Assembly (NCBI GenBank): GCA_037446635.1
Contig: JBBIIG010000004.1
Location: forward strand, 18,943-82,942
Length of the DNA: 64,000 nucleotides
DNA from: a bacterium
GTDB taxonomy: Bacteria > Zhuqueibacterota > Zhuqueibacteria > Oceanimicrobiales > Oceanimicrobiaceae
Direction: 5' to 3'
Position 1 is the stretch's first letter. Every line of letters starts with the position of its first letter. The translations under genes were made by a program, and so were the position numbers. Of this stretch, positions 8,976 to 27,777 are shown piece after piece. The notes under the pieces are model-generated. The model made no database searches. It had not been told where the DNA came from and worked only from the letters and a program-made list of their open reading frames with translations.

Positions 8976-11276
8976 ATGCAGTGCAGAACCAATATCACTG
9001 TGTGGAAGGTCTTGTTTACCTTCCTGGTTCTTTCGATGGTCGTTTTTTCTAAAAAAACACTAGCCCAAGAAAATATAGATAATCAGATCGTGGTCATGTT
9101 CAAATCAGGCATAGTAAGCCTTCCCGATGGCCGCGATCGAGCGAATCTGGACGAGGCCACGCTTCCAACTCCACTTCGGACTTTACTAAAAGCCTTTGAT
9201 GCCCAGGAAATTGCAAAGGGAATCCCGGAATTCCAGCGTTCAGACACCTTACGCGTTCTACCAGATGGCCGATTGTTTAAGGTACCGGACTATACGAACC
9301 TGTTTGTCATTACATTGCCCACAGGATTACAACGAGAGGCATTGGTAGATTCCTTGGTGCGGTTCCCAATCGTGGTCAGTGCCGAAAAAAACCAGAGGGC
9401 CATTTTGCGGGAGACCATTCCCAATGATACACACTTCCAGGCCCGCCAATGGAATTTGAAAAACACGGGTCAATTTGGCGGCACGCCGGGCGCCGACGTC
9501 AAAGCAACTTTTGCGTGGGATATTACCAAAGGCAGTACTTCCGTTATCTTGGGTATTTTAGATTACGGAATACAATCAGGACATCTTGATTTGCAGGGCA
9601 AGGTTAGCGGTGACGCTGGTTATAGTGTTTCTCACGGAACCCATGTAGCGGGCATTGCTGGCGCACTTACAAATAACAACCGAGGCGTTGCCGGCGTAGA
9701 TTGGAATGCTCAGTTGGTTTCGCAACGAATAGATTTAGGCGGCATCCCAGAAATAGCACAGGCCGTCAACGATGCAGTAGCGGCAGGCGCACGGGTGTTG
9801 AACAATAGCTGGGGATTGCCAAGTTATTCTACGGTACTTTACAATGCGTTTCTATCCGCTTACCAAGCCGATGTCCTCTCCACTGTGGCCAATCCCGAAA
9901 CCGGCGCTACAGGTGAATTTCCAAACAGTTTCGGTACCTGGATTATGAATGTTGCTGCTACGACTAATGGAGATGCAAAAGCCAGCTATTCCTTCGATCG
10001 CAACTATACTGATGTTGGTGCACCTGGCGGCAATGCCGATGGAGTCTTAGAACGCAATATTTATTCTACAATTCCGGACAACACCTATGGTTATATGGCT
10101 GGCACTTCCATGGCTACTCCACACGTAACCGGCATTGCAGGACTATTGCTGGCCATCAATCCCAACCTGCACAATTATGATCTGGAGTGGATCATCAAAC
10201 GCTCTGCCAACGATATACCGCCTACGGGTCGAGACCCTAGCACCGGTTACGGTCGAGTTAACGCGTACGAGGCGGTGCGACATGTGGCTGCCCCGTATCA
10301 GATCACCCACGGCAATGCCACGTTGACGAAAACAAATAACAATATTCAGGTAACATTCTTAGCGCCACCGTTGCCGGAACTAGCGGCGGGGACTTACTGG
10401 GTAGATCGTTGGCAATTAGAAGCTGTTGTTAATTTCAATCCTATTTATTCTCAAACTCCATGGGCGTGGCTGAGCCAAACCGGCTATTCAGCAGCCAACC
10501 CCAACGATGCAAAAGAATACATGTATGAAAACTCCACGACATCTTCGACTACCATTAGAACCTTTTTCTATTATATAAGAACAAATCTCTTAGGACAAAC
10601 AATCAACAAATGGGCGCCGATGGATCCGAATATTTTATCTCGTCAATATGCTGTGTTAGGCACTCCGGCACCTCTGGCCGTCACCATCACCGGCCCGACC
10701 TCGCTGGGATACAAACAATCCGGCACGTGGACGGCCAATGCCTCCGGCGGCACGGGTTCGTACACTTACGAATGGCGGTTTCGTTACAATGGCACCGGCC
10801 CCTGGTCCAGTGTGGTGGGCACATCTCAAACCTATACCCGCACCATGTTAGACACCGATTTTGAGCTGCAGGTTAAGGTAACCAGTGGCGGTCAGAGTGT
10901 CTATGACACCCATTACGTTGATTACGGAGTGGCTAAAGAAGGCGTTGCTGATTCTGATGTGACGGTTCAAATCCCAGAACAATTTGCACTACATCAGAAT
11001 TATCCGAATCCGTTTAACCCGACTACCGAAATCAAATTTGAATTGCCAGAAAATGGCTACGTCACTGTAAGCATCTTTAACGCGGTGGGCCAAAGAATTC
11101 GTACTCTGGTAGATGAGCCCAAGACCGCCGGTTATCACAGCGTCGTCTGGGACAGCAAAGATGAGTCTGGTCACGAGGTGGCTTCGGGAGTGTATCTCTA
11201 CCGTATCTATGTCAGACCCGCTAATGCCAGCGGCCAACCATTCAAAGCGGTCAAAAAAATGACGCTTCTGCGATAG
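8976..11276 (+). CDS. Secreted subtilisin-like serine protease (peptidase S8) with T9SS C-terminal sorting domain
   Basis: Catalytic triad contexts: ILDYGIQSGHLDL (Asp), HGTHVAGIAGA (His), GTSMATPHVTGIAGLL (Ser). C-terminus LHQNYPNPFNPTTEIKFELPENGYVTVSIFNAVGQRIRTL...GVYLYRI. SD is AAGGAGG. Confidence 0.88.
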   Translation: MQCRTNITVWKVLFTFLVLSMVVFSKKTLAQENIDNQIVVMFKSGIVSLPDGRDRANLDEATLPTPLRTLLKAFDAQEIAKGIPEFQRSDTLRVLPDGRLFKVPDYTNLFVITLPTGLQREALVDSLVRFPIVVSAEKNQRAILRETIPNDTHFQARQWNLKNTGQFGGTPGADVKATFAWDITKGSTSVILGILDYGIQSGHLDLQGKVSGDAGYSVSHGTHVAGIAGALTNNNRGVAGVDWNAQLVSQRIDLGGIPEIAQAVNDAVAAGARVLNNSWGLPSYSTVLYNAFLSAYQADVLSTVANPETGATGEFPNSFGTWIMNVAATTNGDAKASYSFDRNYTDVGAPGGNADGVLERNIYSTIPDNTYGYMAGTSMATPHVTGIAGLLLAINPNLHNYDLEWIIKRSANDIPPTGRDPSTGYGRVNAYEAVRHVAAPYQITHGNATLTKTNNNIQVTFLAPPLPELAAGTYWVDRWQLEAVVNFNPIYSQTPWAWLSQTGYSAANPNDAKEYMYENSTTSSTTIRTFFYYIRTNLLGQTINKWAPMDPNILSRQYAVLGTPAPLAVTITGPTSLGYKQSGTWTANASGGTGSYTYEWRFRYNGTGPWSSVVGTSQTYTRTMLDTDFELQVKVTSGGQSVYDTHYVDYGVAKEGVADSDVTVQIPEQFALHQNYPNPFNPTTEIKFELPENGYVTVSIFNAVGQRIRTLVDEPKTAGYHSVVWDSKDESGHEVASGVYLYRIYVRPANASGQPFKAVKKMTLLR

Positions 11277-11426: not shown

Positions 11427-12860
11427 TTAATACTTCGGCACACTCGGATCCACCTCATCCGACCAGGCCAGAATCCCGCCTTTCAAATTCTTGACCTTCT
11501 CAAAACCGGCTTCCCGCAAAAACTTCACGGCTTTGGCGCTGCGGCCGCCCATCTTGCAATGCACGACAATTTCCTGTGAGCGATCCAATTCGTGAATCCG
11601 CGTGGGCAATTCATTGAGCGGAATCAGCTTCGAACCAGGAATGCGGCAAATTTCATATTCATGCGGCTGGCGGACATCGAGGATGAAAACGCCGCGATTG
11701 TTGGACAAGCGCTCATGCAACTGTCGCACCGTGATCTCGTTTTCCTCCGGCAGCACCACGCGATCCGCCGGCGTGCCGATGCCGCAGAATTGCTCGTAGT
11801 CAATCAAGGCATGAATGGTTGGATTTTCACCGCAGATCGGGCACTTGGGATCTTTGCGCAATTTCAATTCGCGATACTTCATGGCTAACGCGTCGTATAA
11901 AAGCAGCCGGCCAATCAGCGGCTCGCCTTTGCCGATGATCAACTTCACCGCTTCCGTGGCTTGCATCAGCCCGACCGTGCCAGGGAGAATGCCCAGCACC
12001 CCGCCTTCGGCGCAGCTCGGCACCAATCCCGGCGGCGGAGGTTCGGGATAGAGACAGCGATAGCACGGGCCCTCTTTGGCGTAAAACACCGAGACCTGCC
12101 CTTCGAAACGAAAGATGCTGCCGTACACGTTGGGCTTGCCCAGCAGCACACAGGCGTCGTTCACCAGATAGCGGGTGGGGAAATTATCGGTGCCGTCGAT
12201 GATGATATCGTAGTTCTCGAAAATTTGCAGCGCGTTTTCGGAAGTCAATCGCGTCTCGTAGGTATCCACCTCGACGTAGGGATTGATGCCCTGAATACGT
12301 TCCTTCGCCGCCTGCAATTTCGGGCGGCCGACGTCATTCGTTGAATAAATCACCTGCCGCTGCAAATTAGTAAAATCCACCACATCAAAATCGACGATGC
12401 CAATTCGGCCCACGCCCGCGGCGGCTAAATACAGCGCCACCGGCGAACCCAGCCCGCCCATGCCCACCAGCAGCACCTTGGCCTCTTTGAGTTTCCGCTG
12501 TCCTTCGAGCGCCACCTCCGGCATAATGAGATGCCGGCTGTAGCGTTCGATTTCTGCTTTCGAAAATTCACCGTTGCTGTCGCTGCCGCCGGCCACCGAT
12601 GGCACGATGCTGATGACGTCGCCGGCTTTGATGTTGGTTTCTGTGCCGCGAAGATAGCGCACGTCGTCATCGTTGACATAAAGGTTGACGAAATTGCGCA
12701 GGCGACCGTCCTCGCTAAAGAGATGTTTGCGCAAGTCGGGGAATTTCTCAGTGAGGTTGTCCAGCAGTTCGCCAACATTCTTTCCCTCTATTTGAACGCT
12801 GTCCTGATTTTTTGCATACTGGCGCAGCGCCGTCGGGATCAATATTTTTGTAGTCATCAT
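11427..12860 (-). CDS. Fusion of a CysO/MoaD/ThiS-like sulfur-carrier domain (ending in GG) with a MoeZ/MoeB-type E1 adenylyltransferase and a rhodanese domain
   Basis: N-terminal ~93 aa: ..VNLYVNDDDVRYLRGTETNIKAGDVISIVPSVAGG, then LVGMGGLGSPVALYLAAAGVGRIGIVDFDVVDFTNLQRQ (ThiF/MoeB). Zn ribbon CYRC..CPIC. C-terminal rhodanese VHCKMGGRS. Confidence 0.85.
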   Translation of the reverse strand: MMTTKILIPTALRQYAKNQDSVQIEGKNVGELLDNLTEKFPDLRKHLFSEDGRLRNFVNLYVNDDDVRYLRGTETNIKAGDVISIVPSVAGGSDSNGEFSKAEIERYSRHLIMPEVALEGQRKLKEAKVLLVGMGGLGSPVALYLAAAGVGRIGIVDFDVVDFTNLQRQVIYSTNDVGRPKLQAAKERIQGINPYVEVDTYETRLTSENALQIFENYDIIIDGTDNFPTRYLVNDACVLLGKPNVYGSIFRFEGQVSVFYAKEGPCYRCLYPEPPPPGLVPSCAEGGVLGILPGTVGLMQATEAVKLIIGKGEPLIGRLLLYDALAMKYRELKLRKDPKCPICGENPTIHALIDYEQFCGIGTPADRVVLPEENEITVRQLHERLSNNRGVFILDVRQPHEYEICRIPGSKLIPLNELPTRIHELDRSQEIVVHCKMGGRSAKAVKFLREAGFEKVKNLKGGILAWSDEVDPSVPKY

Positions 12861-12874
12861 TTTCTCTCCTCAAC

Positions 12875-13308
12875 TTACTCGTTCACTACAATGATTTTTT
12901 CTTGTTTGAATTTTGAGCGATCGTCTTCGAGCGTCCAGGAGGTGACATCGCTCGCTTTGCTATTTTTTATTGAAACGATGATATAGGAATACCACGGCCA
13001 ACCATGTTCAACATCATAGGCGGAGGGCCGCGCTTCGGCATTTGGGTGCGAATGATAAAAACCAATGATGTCGAGATTCTTTTGCTTAGCGTACTTTTGG
13101 CATTCGAGATAAGCTTGCGGCGTAATTAGAAAGCGATGATACTTCTCGGCGCTTTCGCGAGCATTGAGCGCTGGCAGTGTTGCCACCACTACTTTGTCGC
13201 CGTTCACATTTCTGCCCAATAAAAATCCGCAGCACTCGTCCGGATACGATTCCTCGCCGTATGCTTTGATTAATTCCAAATGCTGTCGATCAATCTTAAG
13301 CGCCATAA
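12875..13308 (-). CDS. JAMM/MPN+ metalloprotease (Mec+-like)
   Basis: Motifs EsyPdECCGFLLG and FYHSHPNAEARPSAYD (HxHx7Sx2D). The ATG at 13308 is preferred over the upstream extension. Confidence 0.8.
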
Positions 13309-14273
13309 TTATTTTCACTCCAAAATTTCTGATCGAAATATTTGTGCGCGCTGTCCGGAAAAATAGTGACAATAACTCCGCAGCCGATCTCCTTCGCAAC
13401 CTGCAGTGCCACGGCCAAAGCCGCTCCCGAGGAAATTCCTACGAGCAGACCTTCTTCCTTTGCCAAAAGTTTCACCATGCGCTGCGCCTCTTCGGTGCTC
13501 ACGGTGCGATTGTCATCCGCTAAATCCGGCTGATAAAAACCCGGCACGATGGCGGTCTCCATGTGCTTCAAACCTTCAAGACCGTGGAATGGCGAATCGG
13601 GTTGCACCGAGATCAATTTAATTTCTTCGTTATATTCTCGCAAAAAAAGCCCCGAGCCCATAAACGTGCCGCTGGTGCCAAGCCCCGCAACAAAATGGGT
13701 AATGCGGCCTTCGGTTTGCCGGATAATTTCCGGGCCCGTACTATCATAATGCGCCAGCCAGTTGGCGCGATTGTTATACTGATCGGCATAAAAATAGCGC
13801 TCCGGCTCTGCCGCAAAAATTCGGCGCGCTTCGCGAATGGCGCCGTCGGAGCCTTGCTGGGGATCGGTCAAAATCAATTCCGCGCCATACGCTCGCAAAA
13901 TTTGCTGAAAGATGTTGCCGGAATTCTTTGGAATCGCCAACTTGACTTTGTATCCCAAATTCGCGCCGTACATGGCGTAGGCGATGCCGGTATTTCCAGA
14001 GGTGGCGTCGAGGATAATTTTATCCGGTGTGAGTTGCCCCGATTTTTCGCCTTCTAAGATAATGTTCAAAGCCGCGCGGTCTTTCACGGAGCCGCCGGGA
14101 TTGAACCACTCGGCTTTGGCGTAAATTTCCACTGGCGCCACACGCGCGGAAATTTTGGCAAGATAAATCAGCGGCGTGTTGCCAACGCGGCTGAGGATAG
14201 ATGGTTTGCGATCGCCGCCTTCAGAGAGCGTCTCCGCAAACGGCTCGAATATTGTCGCTGCTTCTGTTTGCAT
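13296..14273 (-). CDS. cysM: Cysteine synthase (PLP-dependent, CysM/CysK family), probably sulfur-carrier (CysO-thiocarboxylate) dependent
   Basis: ..KAEWFNPGGSVKDRAALNII.. PLP-lysine motif. Gene order cysM-mec-cysO/moeZ as in the mycobacterial CysM/CysO/Mec+ system. Confidence 0.85.
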   Translation of the reverse strand: MQTEAATIFEPFAETLSEGGDRKPSILSRVGNTPLIYLAKISARVAPVEIYAKAEWFNPGGSVKDRAALNIILEGEKSGQLTPDKIILDATSGNTGIAYAMYGANLGYKVKLAIPKNSGNIFQQILRAYGAELILTDPQQGSDGAIREARRIFAAEPERYFYADQYNNRANWLAHYDSTGPEIIRQTEGRITHFVAGLGTSGTFMGSGLFLREYNEEIKLISVQPDSPFHGLEGLKHMETAIVPGFYQPDLADDNRTVSTEEAQRMVKLLAKEEGLLVGISSGAALAVALQVAKEIGCGVIVTIFPDSAHKYFDQKFWSENNYGA

Positions 14274-14289
14274 TTTAAGCCTTTCTATT

Positions 14290-14520
14290 AAAACAAAAAA
14301 CCCACATCGTGTGAATGTGGGTTATGATTTTGGTATGCTAACTTGATTTAAGAATATCAAAACTTCAACATAACCCACCGCTCCATTTCATACAACAGAT
14401 GCACGCGCTGCACACCATCCAGAATTGATTGCAGGGGCCCATGAAGTTTTGCATTTGAATTTTCATCGCGTTGTTCAATTTTGACGAACAAATGTACGCC
14501 ATCGTTTATTTCAAGTCAAG
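14290..14520 (-). promoter_or_regulatory. Candidate transcription attenuator of the cysM operon: Cys-rich leader ORF plus mutually exclusive antiterminator and terminator hairpins
   Basis: On the minus strand: TTGACT-17-TACATT promoter-like hexamers (14519..14491). Leader ORF 14466..14365. Antiterminator arms are GTGGGTTATG (14378..14369) and CATAACCCAC (14326..14317). Terminator is AACCCACAT-TCACACG-ATGTGGGTT (14323..14299) plus TTTTGTTTT (14298..14290). It ends ~16 nt before the cysM ATG. Confidence 0.6.
14365..14466 (-). CDS. Putative cysteine-rich leader peptide MKIQMQNFMGPCNQFWMVCSACICCMKWSGGLC (6 Cys/33). The in-frame upstream ATG at 14502 would give 45 aa with 7 Cys
   Basis: ORF read from the sequence. 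No clear SD. The stop codon TGA abuts the antiterminator 5' arm. Confidence 0.45.
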   Translation of the reverse strand: MKIQMQNFMGPCNQFWMVCSACICCMKWSGGLC

Positions 14521-14543
14521 AAAAAGTTTTAGAAACTTAATGG

Positions 14544-14948
14544 TCAATTGGCGCGAGTTTTAGACCACTCTTTGATGTAGGCGATGATGTCGCTAGTGCT
14601 CGATCCCGGGCCGAAAATTTTGCCTGTGCCCATTTTCTCCAATGCCTCCACATCTTCCGGGGGGATGATGCCGCCGCCGGTGAGCAGCACGTCGGTCAAT
14701 CCCTTTTCGTCCATTAATTTTTTGATGCGCGGAAAGAGCGTCATGTGGGCGCCGGAGAGAATGCTGAGCCCGATAACGTCCACGTCTTCCTGCAACGCCG
14801 CCTCGACGATCATCTCCGGCGTCTGATGCAAGCCAGTGTAGATCACTTCAAAGCCGGCGTCGCGCAGGGCGCTGGCGATGACTTTGGCGCCGCGGTCGTG
14901 GCCGTCCAATCCGGGCTTGGCAATAAGTACGCGAATTTTACGTTCCAT
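14544..14948 (-). CDS. Methylmalonyl-CoA mutase small subunit (cobalamin-binding domain)
   Basis: B12-binding Rossmann fold: ..[34 protein letters not shown].. Confidence 0.85.
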
Positions 14949-15173
14949 AATTTACTGCTCAGTTTATCGGGTTAGTGCGACCGTTAATTTAGAATCCGTT
15001 CTGAAAAATGCAACTTAAAAAACGCATGGCGCATAGCGCCAAGAGCATAGCGCCGAGCGAAGAGCGAAAGAGCGTTAAGCGAAACATCGGCACAAACACC
15101 TCTGCCCGCAAACAACGCGGGCTGTCCCCTCAAGGGGACATTTTACGTTGGCGCTATGCACTTGCTCTCTGCG

Positions 15174-25276: not shown

Positions 25277-25421
25277 CGGTCGGTTTCAAAGTGCAAAATA
25301 ATAAACAAACCAAACTCAAAAAGCAATAGCTTTTTCAGAGCCGAACTTGTGCAGTGGAATATTTTTATTGAGTTTTTGGCAACTTTCTCTAACTTGTCAA
25401 CCTGACCCGGAGGAGATAAAG

Positions 25422-26681
25422 ATGAGATCTCATTTCGTACTGATAGCCGCACTCGCCGTGTTGCTCGCGCCCGAAACAACGCTAGCACAACCGGATGAGT
25501 TGGGTTTATGGCTCAGCCGGGCGCCGCTGCCTACGCCGCGACAGGAGATGCCCCAGGTGTTTTTGAACAACCGAATTTATATTCCCGGCGGGTTACTCCA
25601 AAACACGCTGGCGACCACCATTGTTGAAGTGTTCGAGCCTGCTGCCAATCGCTGGACAGCCGCCGCGAATTTGCCGGCGGCCATGCACCATCTCCATCTC
25701 ACCACGGCTAACCTGCGTCTTTATGTTTTGGGTGGATTTGAAGGATCGGGTTTCACGCCCTCCAATCTCGTGTTTGAATACAATCCTAGCAATAACGAGT
25801 GGACACAACTGGCCACCATGCCGACGCCCCGCGGCGCCGGCGTCGCCGCGGCACTGGATGGCAAAATTTTTGTGATTGGCGGAGTCAGTTCATTTCAATT
25901 AGCCGTCGGAACGAATGAAATGTTCGATCCGGTTGCCAACACATGGAACTCGCGTCGTGCCATGCCGACCCGGCGCGAACATCTCGCCGCCGCGGTGATC
26001 GATTCTCTCATTTATGTCGTCGGCGGCCGGGAATTCGGAGTGAACAAAAATACCTTAGAGGCTTATTCGCCCCGAAGCGATACCTGGTACACGCTGGCAC
26101 CGATGCCCACCGCGCGCGGCGGACTGGCGGCAGCCGCGCTGCACGGAAGGCTTTACGTCTTCGGCGGCGAGTTTTTTGATTCCGGCGGCTCCGGTGTCTT
26201 TGCAGAAGTAGAAGAATATAATCCCGTCACCAATACTTGGCGAGAATTGACTCCCATGCCGGTTCCGCGCCACGGCATGGGCGCCGCTGCCGTAGGCGAT
26301 TCGATCTTTGTCATCGGCGGCGGACCAGTTGCGGGCTTCGGAGTTTCCAATGTCAACTCCCTGTTTGTGCCGCCGGCCATTCCCAGCGCTGTGATTGACG
26401 CGCCGCAACGACCGGAACCGTTCATACTTCTGCAAAATTATCCCAACCCGTTTAATCCGGCAACCACCATCCGCATTACACTCGCCCATGAAAGCGAAGT
26501 GGTACTTAACATTTTTGACGTTACCGGACGCGTCGTGACCACCCTGCTCTCGCAAAAAATGCCAAAAGGGGAGCACTCCGTTGAGTGGAATGCACACCCG
26601 CAAGCGAGCGGCGTGTACGTGGGCACGCTTTGGGCAGGCAGCCGGCTCATCGCCACCAGAAAAATGCTGCTGTTGCGATGA
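25422..26681 (+). CDS. Secreted Kelch-repeat beta-propeller protein with T9SS C-terminal sorting domain
   Basis: Signal peptide MRSHFVLIAALAVLLAPETTLA. Six kelch-like blades (..LYVLGG.., ..IFVIGG.., ..IYVVGG.., ..LYVFGG..). C-terminus ..LLQNYPNPFNPATTIRITL..GVYVGTL.. SD is GGAGGAG. Confidence 0.82.
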   Translation: MRSHFVLIAALAVLLAPETTLAQPDELGLWLSRAPLPTPRQEMPQVFLNNRIYIPGGLLQNTLATTIVEVFEPAANRWTAAANLPAAMHHLHLTTANLRLYVLGGFEGSGFTPSNLVFEYNPSNNEWTQLATMPTPRGAGVAAALDGKIFVIGGVSSFQLAVGTNEMFDPVANTWNSRRAMPTRREHLAAAVIDSLIYVVGGREFGVNKNTLEAYSPRSDTWYTLAPMPTARGGLAAAALHGRLYVFGGEFFDSGGSGVFAEVEEYNPVTNTWRELTPMPVPRHGMGAAAVGDSIFVIGGGPVAGFGVSNVNSLFVPPAIPSAVIDAPQRPEPFILLQNYPNPFNPATTIRITLAHESEVVLNIFDVTGRVVTTLLSQKMPKGEHSVEWNAHPQASGVYVGTLWAGSRLIATRKMLLLR

Positions 26682-27173: not shown

Positions 27174-27390
27174 CGATTTCCAAAGAAATAAACCACGCGC
27201 TCCCCGGGTGAGGGCAGTCGCCAGGCGTCTACCGCCGGTCCCGTATAGTCGGGATCGGCGTTTTGTTTTCGGATGGCTACAAGCCAGTTCTGCAAGTTTG
27301 TGCTTGCTATTTTTTCTTCATTCGTTTAATTTCGACCGAACTTTCCATAAATCATTCTTCCGCATCATTATTAAAGCGAGGTTTGATCGC

Positions 27391-27777
27391 ATGTCAGAAT
27401 CAAGTGAACTTCAGGCGCGCAACTGGGGCATCTTCTGTCATTTGTCCGCATTGGCCTTATGGGTGGGCGTGCCATTTGGCAATATCGTAATTCCACTTTT
27501 GATTTGGTTGATCAAAAAAGATGAAATGCCACTAGTTAATGCCGAGGGCAAAGAATCGCTTAATTTTCAAATTTCGATATCGATTTATGCACTCATCATC
27601 AGTATCGTAGGGATAGCGACCATTTTCATCGAGTATGAAAGTGAATTTCTGTGGCCTTTCGCCTTGTTGCTGTTTGTGCTCGCACTTTCACAAATCGTGC
27701 TCGTCATCATTGCCGCCGTCAAAGTAAGCCGCGGCACGCCATTCAAATACCCGCTGACGATGCGCTTCATTAAATGA
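27391..27777 (+). CDS. Small membrane protein (DUF4870-like)
   Basis: ..NWGIFCHLSALALWVGVPFGNIVIPLLIWLIKKDEMPLVNAEGKESLNFQ.. The start at the ATG 27391 with SD GAGG is preferred over the 27208 extension. Confidence 0.6.
   Translation: MSESSELQARNWGIFCHLSALALWVGVPFGNIVIPLLIWLIKKDEMPLVNAEGKESLNFQISISIYALIISIVGIATIFIEYESEFLWPFALLLFVLALSQIVLVIIAAVKVSRGTPFKYPLTMRFIK

Follow-up and report, generated by a model that had tools for sequence, protein, structure and literature searches.

What occupies the 270-nt gap that separates, on the minus strand of a 64,000-nucleotide stretch of the bacterial contig JBBIIG010000004.1 (the whole stretch analysed, hereafter the window), the end of a methylmalonyl-CoA mutase (MCM) small-subunit gene (14544) from a cysM-type cysteine synthase gene, and does it govern the cysteine genes that follow? 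An earlier note on this DNA had read into the gap a ribosome-mediated attenuator of the trp/his type, in which a short upstream open reading frame (uORF) rich in Cys codons would adjust a cysM / JAMM / cysO-moeZ operon. The analysis reported here supports that logic by the joint conservation of the parts, by the confinement of Cys codons to one reading frame, by constraint on the uORF 3′ end at the RNA level, and by folds computed with the ribosome masking part of the transcript. We conclude that the leader is very probably a classical four-segment ribosome-mediated transcription attenuator, predicted to answer the supply of charged tRNA-Cys. Judged from sequence comparison, the element is genuine and conserved rather than a chance arrangement, as its four motif strings each occur once only in the window and the same architecture recurs upstream of cysM in 13 other leaders.

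Elements of the leader

The main elements were found where the earlier note had placed them (Table 1). The 33-codon uORF with its six Cys codons and tandem TGT TGT reads correctly on the minus strand. The proposed antiterminator is a perfect 10-bp helix in which GTGGGTTATG (14378..14369) is the exact complement of CATAACCCAC (14326..14317). The second of these strands overlaps the 5′ arm of a terminator stem of 9-10 bp, AACCCACAT (14323..14315) with ATGTGGGTT (14307..14299), which leads into the U-tract at 14298..14290. The hairpin was also called independently by a pattern-based terminator scanner, and the cysM ATG (14273) follows the U-tract after 16 nt, in agreement with the earlier statement. 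Matches to Pfam PALP, Prok-JAB and ThiS+ThiF+Rhodanese bear out the identity given to the operon.

Two statements of the note need rewording. The uORF stop had been said to abut the 5′ arm of the antiterminator; its position is right, but the arm itself consists of the last four sense codons (GGT GGG TTA TGT). An in-frame ATG at 14502 had also been pointed out, from which a 45-amino-acid peptide with seven Cys would be read. The frame is indeed open, but the ATG is unlikely to be the actual start: it falls between the conserved -35 and -10 boxes of the promoter, in two related leaders (L001 and L161) this reading runs into an in-frame stop, and in a third (L162) it is out of frame.

To these elements the analysis adds a further strand, segment 1, contributed by the 5′ third of the uORF, and with it the helix 1:2. 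In the window segment 1 pairs with segment 2 in two blocks, CAAAACTTCA (14451..14442) with TGAAGTTTTG (14367..14358), and GGCCCCTGC (14439..14431) with GCGG-T-GGGTT (14381..14372). Besides the Cys cluster, the uORF has two more Cys codons, at 14433..14431 and 14370..14368. Comparably Cys-rich small ORFs elsewhere in the window all lie out of frame inside real genes. One of them (27635..27727, plus strand, six Cys including CCC) was considered as a second leader and rejected as a chance occurrence, out of frame within a DUF4870 gene (27208..27777).

The -10 box, which is conserved, ends 24 nt ahead of the uORF ATG. Transcription is predicted to start near 14484, giving a 5′ untranslated region (UTR) of about 18 nt; the start site is deduced from the promoter sequence. 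The -35 box, the spacing and the -10 box (TAnnTT) are all kept in the relatives' leaders. The -10 boxes of the window and of the relatives read TAnnTTTG, with a canonical TTGAC -35 at 17-nt spacing. We take these -10 boxes to resemble the -7 motif of Bacteroidetes promoters.

A separate feature was seen at segment 2, both in the window (14357..14385, minus strand) and at the same site in relatives. A purine-rich GGAG or AGGAG lies about 9 nt 5′ of a near-invariant AUG within arm 2, and this AUG opens mini-ORFs of 3-8 codons (AUG UUG AAG UUU UGA in the window). The pair could be a by-product of the pairing constraints, or else a signal for pausing or re-initiation.

Table 1. Predicted features of the leader and of the operon that follows it (window coordinates)
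Feature	Position	Strand	Details
Predicted sigma-70-type promoter	14491..14519	-	-35 TTGACT (14519..14514), 17-nt spacer, -10 TACATT (14496..14491); consensus scan
Leader-peptide uORF, 33 codons + TGA, 6 Cys codons	14365..14466	-	ATG 14466, TGA 14367..14365; predicted product MKIQMQNFMGPCNQFWMVCSACICCMKWSGGLC
Putative regulatory Cys-codon cluster, codons 19-25 (C-S-A-C-I-C-C)	14392..14412	-	tandem TGT TGT at codons 24-25
Segment 1 (anti-antiterminator 5′ strand), uORF nt 12-36	14431..14455	-	minimum free energy (MFE) folds and family-wide helix test
Segment 2	14358..14381	-	core antiterminator 5′ arm GTGGGTTATG (14378..14369); last four sense codons, stop (14367..14365) and 7 nt past the stop
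Variable spacer (antiterminator loop)	14327..14357	-	poorly conserved even in the five closest leaders, flanks near invariant
Segment 3, CATAACCCACAT	14315..14326	-	common to the antiterminator (14326..14317) and the terminator 5′ arm (14323..14315)
Segment 4, ATGTGGGTT (14307..14299) + U-tract TTTTGTTTT (14298..14290)	14290..14307	-	intrinsic terminator, by terminator scan and fold
cysM-type pyridoxal phosphate (PLP)-dependent cysteine synthase, first regulated gene in the proposed scheme	13296..14273	-	Pfam PALP, E 1.3e-66
JAMM/Mec-type deubiquitinase-like peptidase	12875..13306	-	Pfam Prok-JAB, E 6e-22
Fusion of CysO/ThiS-like sulfur carrier, MoeZ/ThiF-like E1 and rhodanese domain	11427..12860	-	Pfam ThiS, ThiF, Rhodanese

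Conservation of the leader in related genomes

Relatives were collected through CysM searches of representative genomes and metagenomes, the closest homologues being traced back to their contigs. The scan of metagenome contigs returned no relative above 68% CysM identity and its sole additions were L081 and L093, with L102 duplicating L024; closer relatives were reached by searching proteins and looking up contigs. The same architecture was found upstream of cysM in 13 more distinct leaders (L174, L001, L161, L162, L164, L081, L166, L167, L170, L171, L002, L024 and L093), a count from which L168, a near-duplicate of L167, is left out. The closest relative, L174, has a CysM more than 90% identical to that of the window. 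Among the others, L167 is labelled candidate division KSB1, L170 Calditrichaeota, L002 Caldithrix sp. and L024 a metagenome-assembled genome (MAG) of Cytophagia; the rest are unclassified. In L093 the four segments follow each other in the same order and are built from sequences unrelated to those of the window. Gene callers had passed over the uORF in all ten of the leader-bearing relatives for which gene calls were available.

The cysM-JAMM-cysO/moeZ operon follows the leader in nearly every locus that is long enough; in L166 only cysM and the JAB gene are visible within the available sequence. The gene upstream of the leader is usually that of the MCM small subunit. It is a different one in L002, L166 and L167, where the leader is still present, and the leader therefore belongs to cysM.

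In three relatives (L166, L169 and L171) a conserved box, ATAAA(T/G)(A/G)CGAC-N7-(GTCTT/AGTCC), lies just 3′ of the terminator U-run. These are the members in which a long gap (90-230 nt) precedes cysM. The window lacks the box, which may serve as a second regulatory site.

Selection on cysteine codons and on the RNA

The relatives' uORFs have 29-37 codons, 4-9 of them Cys. Over the 15 uORFs tallied (L168 included) Cys accounts for 108 of 494 codons (21.9%) in frame, with 17 and 8 Cys triplets in the other two frames; TGT is used 74 times and TGC 34 times. This concentration of Cys triplets in a single frame indicates that selection acts on the Cys codons of that frame. In an alignment of 12 leaders made with MAFFT (A1) the string CTGTTGT is invariant. 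In the sequence-related members 10-16 nt separate the last tandem Cys codon from the GGG of arm 2; in L093 the distance is 22 nt. The uORF stop falls 0-6 nt past arm 2. Spacings of 10-16 nt and 0-6 nt fit the footprint of a ribosome.

At the amino acid level, a C-x-x-C-x-C-C pattern and, close to the N-terminus, a [QH]-N-[FL] motif are conserved in the leader peptide. None of the peptides matched a family in Pfam or NCBIfam scans. Arm 2 behaves differently: depending on the member it is read as G-G-L, as (P/M)-G-Y-E, or as W-V-V or W-A-M, so that all three frames are used. Conservation of the nucleotides in spite of this argues for a constraint on the RNA. The five closest leaders give a similar picture, with near-invariant blocks at the promoter, at the Cys cluster together with arm 2, and at segments 3 and 4, and a 30-nt spacer between arm 2 and segment 3 that varies freely.

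Covariation and predicted folds

The terminator helix 3:4 is 99.1% paired over 12 leaders, with one compensatory change from an A-U to a G-C pair (in L167), and the antiterminator helix 2:3 is 92.5% paired over 12 leaders. Three conserved pairs of helix 2:3, formed by ATG with CAT, are dispensable for the terminator. The CAT lies 5′ of the terminator stem and is needed by the antiterminator only; its A is invariant, its C is found in 11 of the 12 leaders and its T in 8.

Helix 1:2 was first seen in single-sequence folds, as pairing of the 5′ third of the uORF with arm 2 and the stop region. In the unmodified A1 alignment, columns 12-23 and 107-118 are 80% paired, against 34-44% for slid controls. 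Four pairs are changed on both sides, and the covariation score lies above those of all 500 shuffles. When each leader's segment 1 was matched with its own or with swapped arms, the cognate arm ranked first in 7 of 12 leaders; none of 20000 permutations reached the observed sum.

The earlier note had suggested folding the leader with part of it masked as a check on alternative pairing. Folding distinguishes three states. Free RNA folds into helix 1:2 plus the terminator. With a ribosome masking the RNA through the last tandem Cys codon, and before segment 4 is transcribed, helix 2:3 is present in the MFE fold of 13 of 14 leaders; the exception is L171, where the truncation point was misplaced. 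With the mask at the stop codon the terminator forms alone. In the window, helix 2:3 is worth -18.0 kcal/mol and the terminator hairpin -12.9 kcal/mol. The switch is also apparent from equilibrium folding of L161, L162 and L170, but not of the window, so the case for it is built on co-transcriptional folding.

Proposed mechanism

Every sequence-level feature of a leader-peptide transcription attenuator was found in this leader: a Cys-rich uORF, a terminator, an antiterminator sharing a strand with it, a 1:2 helix and, in silico, the appropriate ribosome geometry. Based on these features we propose the following scheme. Transcription would start at the conserved promoter, about 18 nt ahead of the 33-codon uORF. 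Segments 1 (uORF 5′ third), 2 (uORF 3′ end and stop), 3 (CATAACCCACAT) and 4 (ATGTGGGTT and the U-run) could then pair as 1:2, 2:3 or 3:4. When Cys-tRNA is ample, the ribosome would reach the stop codon and cover segment 2, helix 3:4 would form, and polymerase would terminate 16 nt before cysM. If the uORF is not translated, helix 1:2 would form and leave 3:4 free to do so as well, again with termination as the outcome; the existence of helix 1:2 thus predicts that untranslated RNA terminates by default. When Cys-tRNA is scarce, the ribosome would stall in the Cys cluster, 10-16 nt before the GGG core of segment 2 (some two nt fewer to the start of the arm). The stalled ribosome would keep segment 1 off segment 2, a role deduced from geometry only, so that segment 2 emerges free. 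Once segment 3 is made the two would pair, the terminator would not form, and the operon would be transcribed.

Several findings weigh against this scheme. Translation of the uORF, RNA 3′ ends at the terminator and the response to cysteine are read entirely from sequence and folds. The uORF has no clear Shine-Dalgarno sequence. Its Cys codons fall in the interval that separates segment 1 from segment 2, not in segment 1 itself. RNAalifold, applied to a plain alignment of the uORF region, gave no consensus helix. When the full-length leader of the window is folded at equilibrium with the uORF masked, the terminator is retained and arm 2 pairs into the spacer; the antiterminator must therefore win kinetically, as in trp. 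As for the conservation that the earlier note had asked for, the uORF is conserved upstream of cysM orthologues and the terminator shows its compensatory change, but covariation in helix 2:3 is limited to wobble-type changes, because segments 2 and 3 are almost invariant. Finally, the leader is absent from two relatives, L172 (P0064, L172/L173) and L176 (P0089), and the uORF has been lost from a third, L169 (P0036).

The L169 locus (L169:1707-2000; CysM 71% identical) keeps the promoter and a terminator-like hairpin (AATCCAC...GTGGGTTTTTT), and the Cys-rich uORF is gone. Its leader looks like a decayed or rewired one.

Alternative explanations

Other accounts of the same sequence were considered. 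The uORF might be a small gene in its own right, coding for a functional Cys-rich peptide (metal-binding, redox-active or resembling the precursor of a peptide that is made on ribosomes and modified after translation, RiPP), equipped with its own terminator and found next to cysM on account of a shared function. The amino acid conservation of the C-x-x-C-x-C-C pattern and of the N-terminal motif would suit such a peptide, and Canestrari et al. leave a role of this kind open for Cys-rich small ORFs (sORFs) of mycobacteria (10.1101/834739). Yet the N-terminal motif overlies segment 1, a strand that covaries with arm 2, and residues at the C-terminus show no amino acid conservation, the same nucleotides being read in three frames. 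Moreover, the 3′ end of the uORF is complementary to the terminator 5′ arm in every member, none of the peptides matched a Pfam or NCBIfam family, and the relatives' loci have no modification or export genes alongside. We consider this account unlikely. Still less credible, at a very low probability, is that the hairpin merely terminates the upstream MCM operon and that the Cys-rich ORF sits by accident in its 3′ UTR. From the MCM small-subunit stop (14544) to the hairpin there is no further terminator, and MCM-cysM synteny is frequent; against this, a conserved promoter separates the MCM stop from the uORF, the leader accompanies cysM where its neighbour is a PAS protein gene, a divergent TetR gene or another upstream gene, and the frame-specific enrichment of Cys in 14 distinct leaders cannot be fortuitous.

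A real switch does not by itself prove what sets it, and a protein, a small RNA or a metabolite binding to the leader could do so, with the Cys codons playing a secondary part. The conserved GGAG and invariant AUG at arm 2, and the post-terminator box in three members, leave some room for this idea. The only place for an aptamer or binding site is the spacer, however, and it is not conserved. Searches with Rfam 15 returned no family that reached its gathering score, whether across the window or across 12 related loci; with the cutoff relaxed to E 10, the leader region (13800..15000) gave only chance-level matches, with no T-box or SAM family among them. Apart from the arms, conservation is strongest in the in-frame Cys cluster, which keeps a fixed distance from arm 2. 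We regard a trigger other than the Cys codons as improbable, about as much so as an independent peptide. Control could instead be translational, as in mycobacteria, stalling on the uORF serving to unmask the cysM ribosome-binding site. This is the only mechanism shown experimentally for Cys-codon uORFs (10.1101/834739). In the present leaders a canonical hairpin with a U-run stands between the uORF and the ribosome-binding region in every member, and in the window that region (14283..14274) falls outside all the conserved helices, which makes this explanation highly improbable. The reading we favour remains transcription attenuation set by ribosomes at the Cys codons.

Relation to known leaders

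The attenuators of enterobacteria (trpL, hisL, leuL, thrL, pheL, ilvL) carry codons for the end product that the pathway yields, alternate between 1:2, 2:3 and 3:4 pairings, and place the terminator before the first structural gene. The present leader resembles them in having a uORF rich in end-product codons, four segments with mutually exclusive pairings, a terminator, and a stop codon positioned for the ribosome to mask segment 2. It differs in that the amino acid is cysteine and that the regulatory codons occupy the loop between segments 1 and 2, whereas in the classical leaders they lie within segment 1. It also belongs to an organism of the Fibrobacteres-Chlorobi-Bacteroidetes (FCB) group (KSB1/Calditrichota-like) instead of Proteobacteria, and it precedes genes of the sulfur-carrier route (CysO/MoeZ/JAMM/CysM). 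The two sets have no sequence relationship, and no Rfam leader family matches.

The earlier note knew of no precedent. That holds for this architecture on a cysteine biosynthesis operon: full-text literature searches turned up no terminator-type leader-peptide attenuator described for such an operon. It does not hold for Cys-codon uORFs as regulators, which have been published for mycobacteria and for cysS of Rhodobacterales. In mycobacteria, leaderless polycysteine sORFs act as cysteine-responsive attenuators through ribosome stalling (Canestrari et al. 2020, 10.1101/834739; Mol Microbiol 114:93). There the Cys tract is base-paired to the Shine-Dalgarno region downstream and it is translation that is controlled, a reporter of transcription being insensitive to cysteine; to the knowledge of those authors no uORF-mediated mechanism of cysteine attenuation had been described before (10.1101/834739). 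Common to both systems is a Cys-rich uORF upstream of genes of cysteine metabolism. The window differs in that a 5′ UTR is predicted, a canonical terminator is present, and the antiterminator leaves the cysM ribosome-binding site out of its pairing. A Cys tract paired with the Shine-Dalgarno sequence in the absence of a terminator defines the mycobacterial class; here a terminator is found in every member.

Upstream of cysS in Rhodobacterales, a motif named uORFC-8-2 has been predicted to act as a ribosome-mediated attenuator; it has tandem Cys codons, a terminator stem and a U-run (Brewer et al. 2021, PMC8632094). Its two tandem Cys codons are at about positions 14-15, inside the first stem (PMC8632094). 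The principle, ribosome-mediated attenuation with tandem Cys codons and a terminator, is shared. That motif, however, is alphaproteobacterial, it precedes the gene for a synthetase rather than biosynthesis genes, and going by its published description it is unrelated in sequence and structure. In the family described here the downstream gene is cysM, and the 4-9 Cys codons are located in the loop between segments 1 and 2. Candidate Cys leader peptides have also been proposed in Actinobacteria, as short ORFs, their Cys codons in runs close to the stop, upstream of cys or cbs operons (Seliverstov et al. 2005, PMC1262725). That study found neither terminators nor alternative hairpins with them; their mode of action was left open and Rho dependence suggested (PMC1262725). 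They too place a short ORF with a Cys run ahead of cysteine genes, but the window element has the full set of terminator and antiterminator. In the tRNA-Cys T-box leaders of Firmicutes, the RNA itself binds uncharged tRNA and directs the choice between terminator and antiterminator without translation. Such leaders read tRNA-Cys charging and act on the same kind of choice; in the present leader, translation would be needed, and a T-box was absent even among matches at E up to 10.

A different Cys uORF was noticed at cysM loci of Acidobacteria (Blastocatellia and related). It has 16-30 codons, typically ends in ...(D)TRCCCC(C)-stop, and is followed by no terminator. Examples are L058:2922-2987 and L065:999-1064, with others in L031, L038, L079, L097, L098, L100, L120, L122, L124, L149 and L153. 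In the dominant form the probable cysM ATG sits, in another frame, within a conserved C-Y-A (TGT TAT GCC), and the uORF and cysM would share about 38 nt.

We tentatively suggest, with somewhat less than even confidence, that Cys-codon uORFs ahead of cysM-type operons are a recurrent, probably convergent solution in several phyla, with differing outputs. The output may be a terminator switch in KSB1/Calditrichota-like bacteria and the Cytophagia-labelled MAG, an ORF of about 20 codons ending in ...CCCC-stop and overlapping the probable cysM start in Acidobacteria, and Shine-Dalgarno sequestration in mycobacteria. If so, cysteine synthesis outside the model organisms would widely take tRNA-Cys charging as a primary signal, rather than protein sensing of the O-acetylserine/CysB or CymR type, and the present family would provide the first classical cysteine attenuator of the terminator type on a biosynthetic operon. 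Cysteine has been a notable gap among the amino acids whose biosynthesis is under classical leader-peptide attenuation, and the family supplies a complete and conserved example of the terminator type. It occurs in a poorly studied, mostly uncultured lineage, on the sulfur-carrier route. It offers a regulatory hypothesis, a compact candidate cysteine-responsive genetic part whose promoter and terminator look usable in E. coli, and a search pattern by which the missed uORF can be annotated in metagenomic assemblies.

Genes around the leader

Homologues of the first gene of the operon carry the names cysteine synthase B or cysteine synthase family protein. The JAMM gene probably starts at ATG 13306, overlapping the end of cysM, by analogy with the 142-143-amino-acid genes called in relatives. 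The relatives also have the ThiS+ThiF+Rhodanese fusion, at 477-482 amino acids. On the other side of the gap, 5′ on the minus strand, are genes for MeaB, the MCM large subunit and the B12-binding MCM small subunit. The 64-kb window as a whole contains no tRNA gene. Candidate division KSB1 and Calditrichota are the closest relatives that bear a name. The window further encodes, both on the plus strand, a Kelch-repeat protein bearing a Por_Secre_tail (type IX secretion) sorting domain (25347..26681) and a subtilase with an FlgD-Ig-like C-terminus (8976..11276); the two are consistent with an organism of the FCB group.

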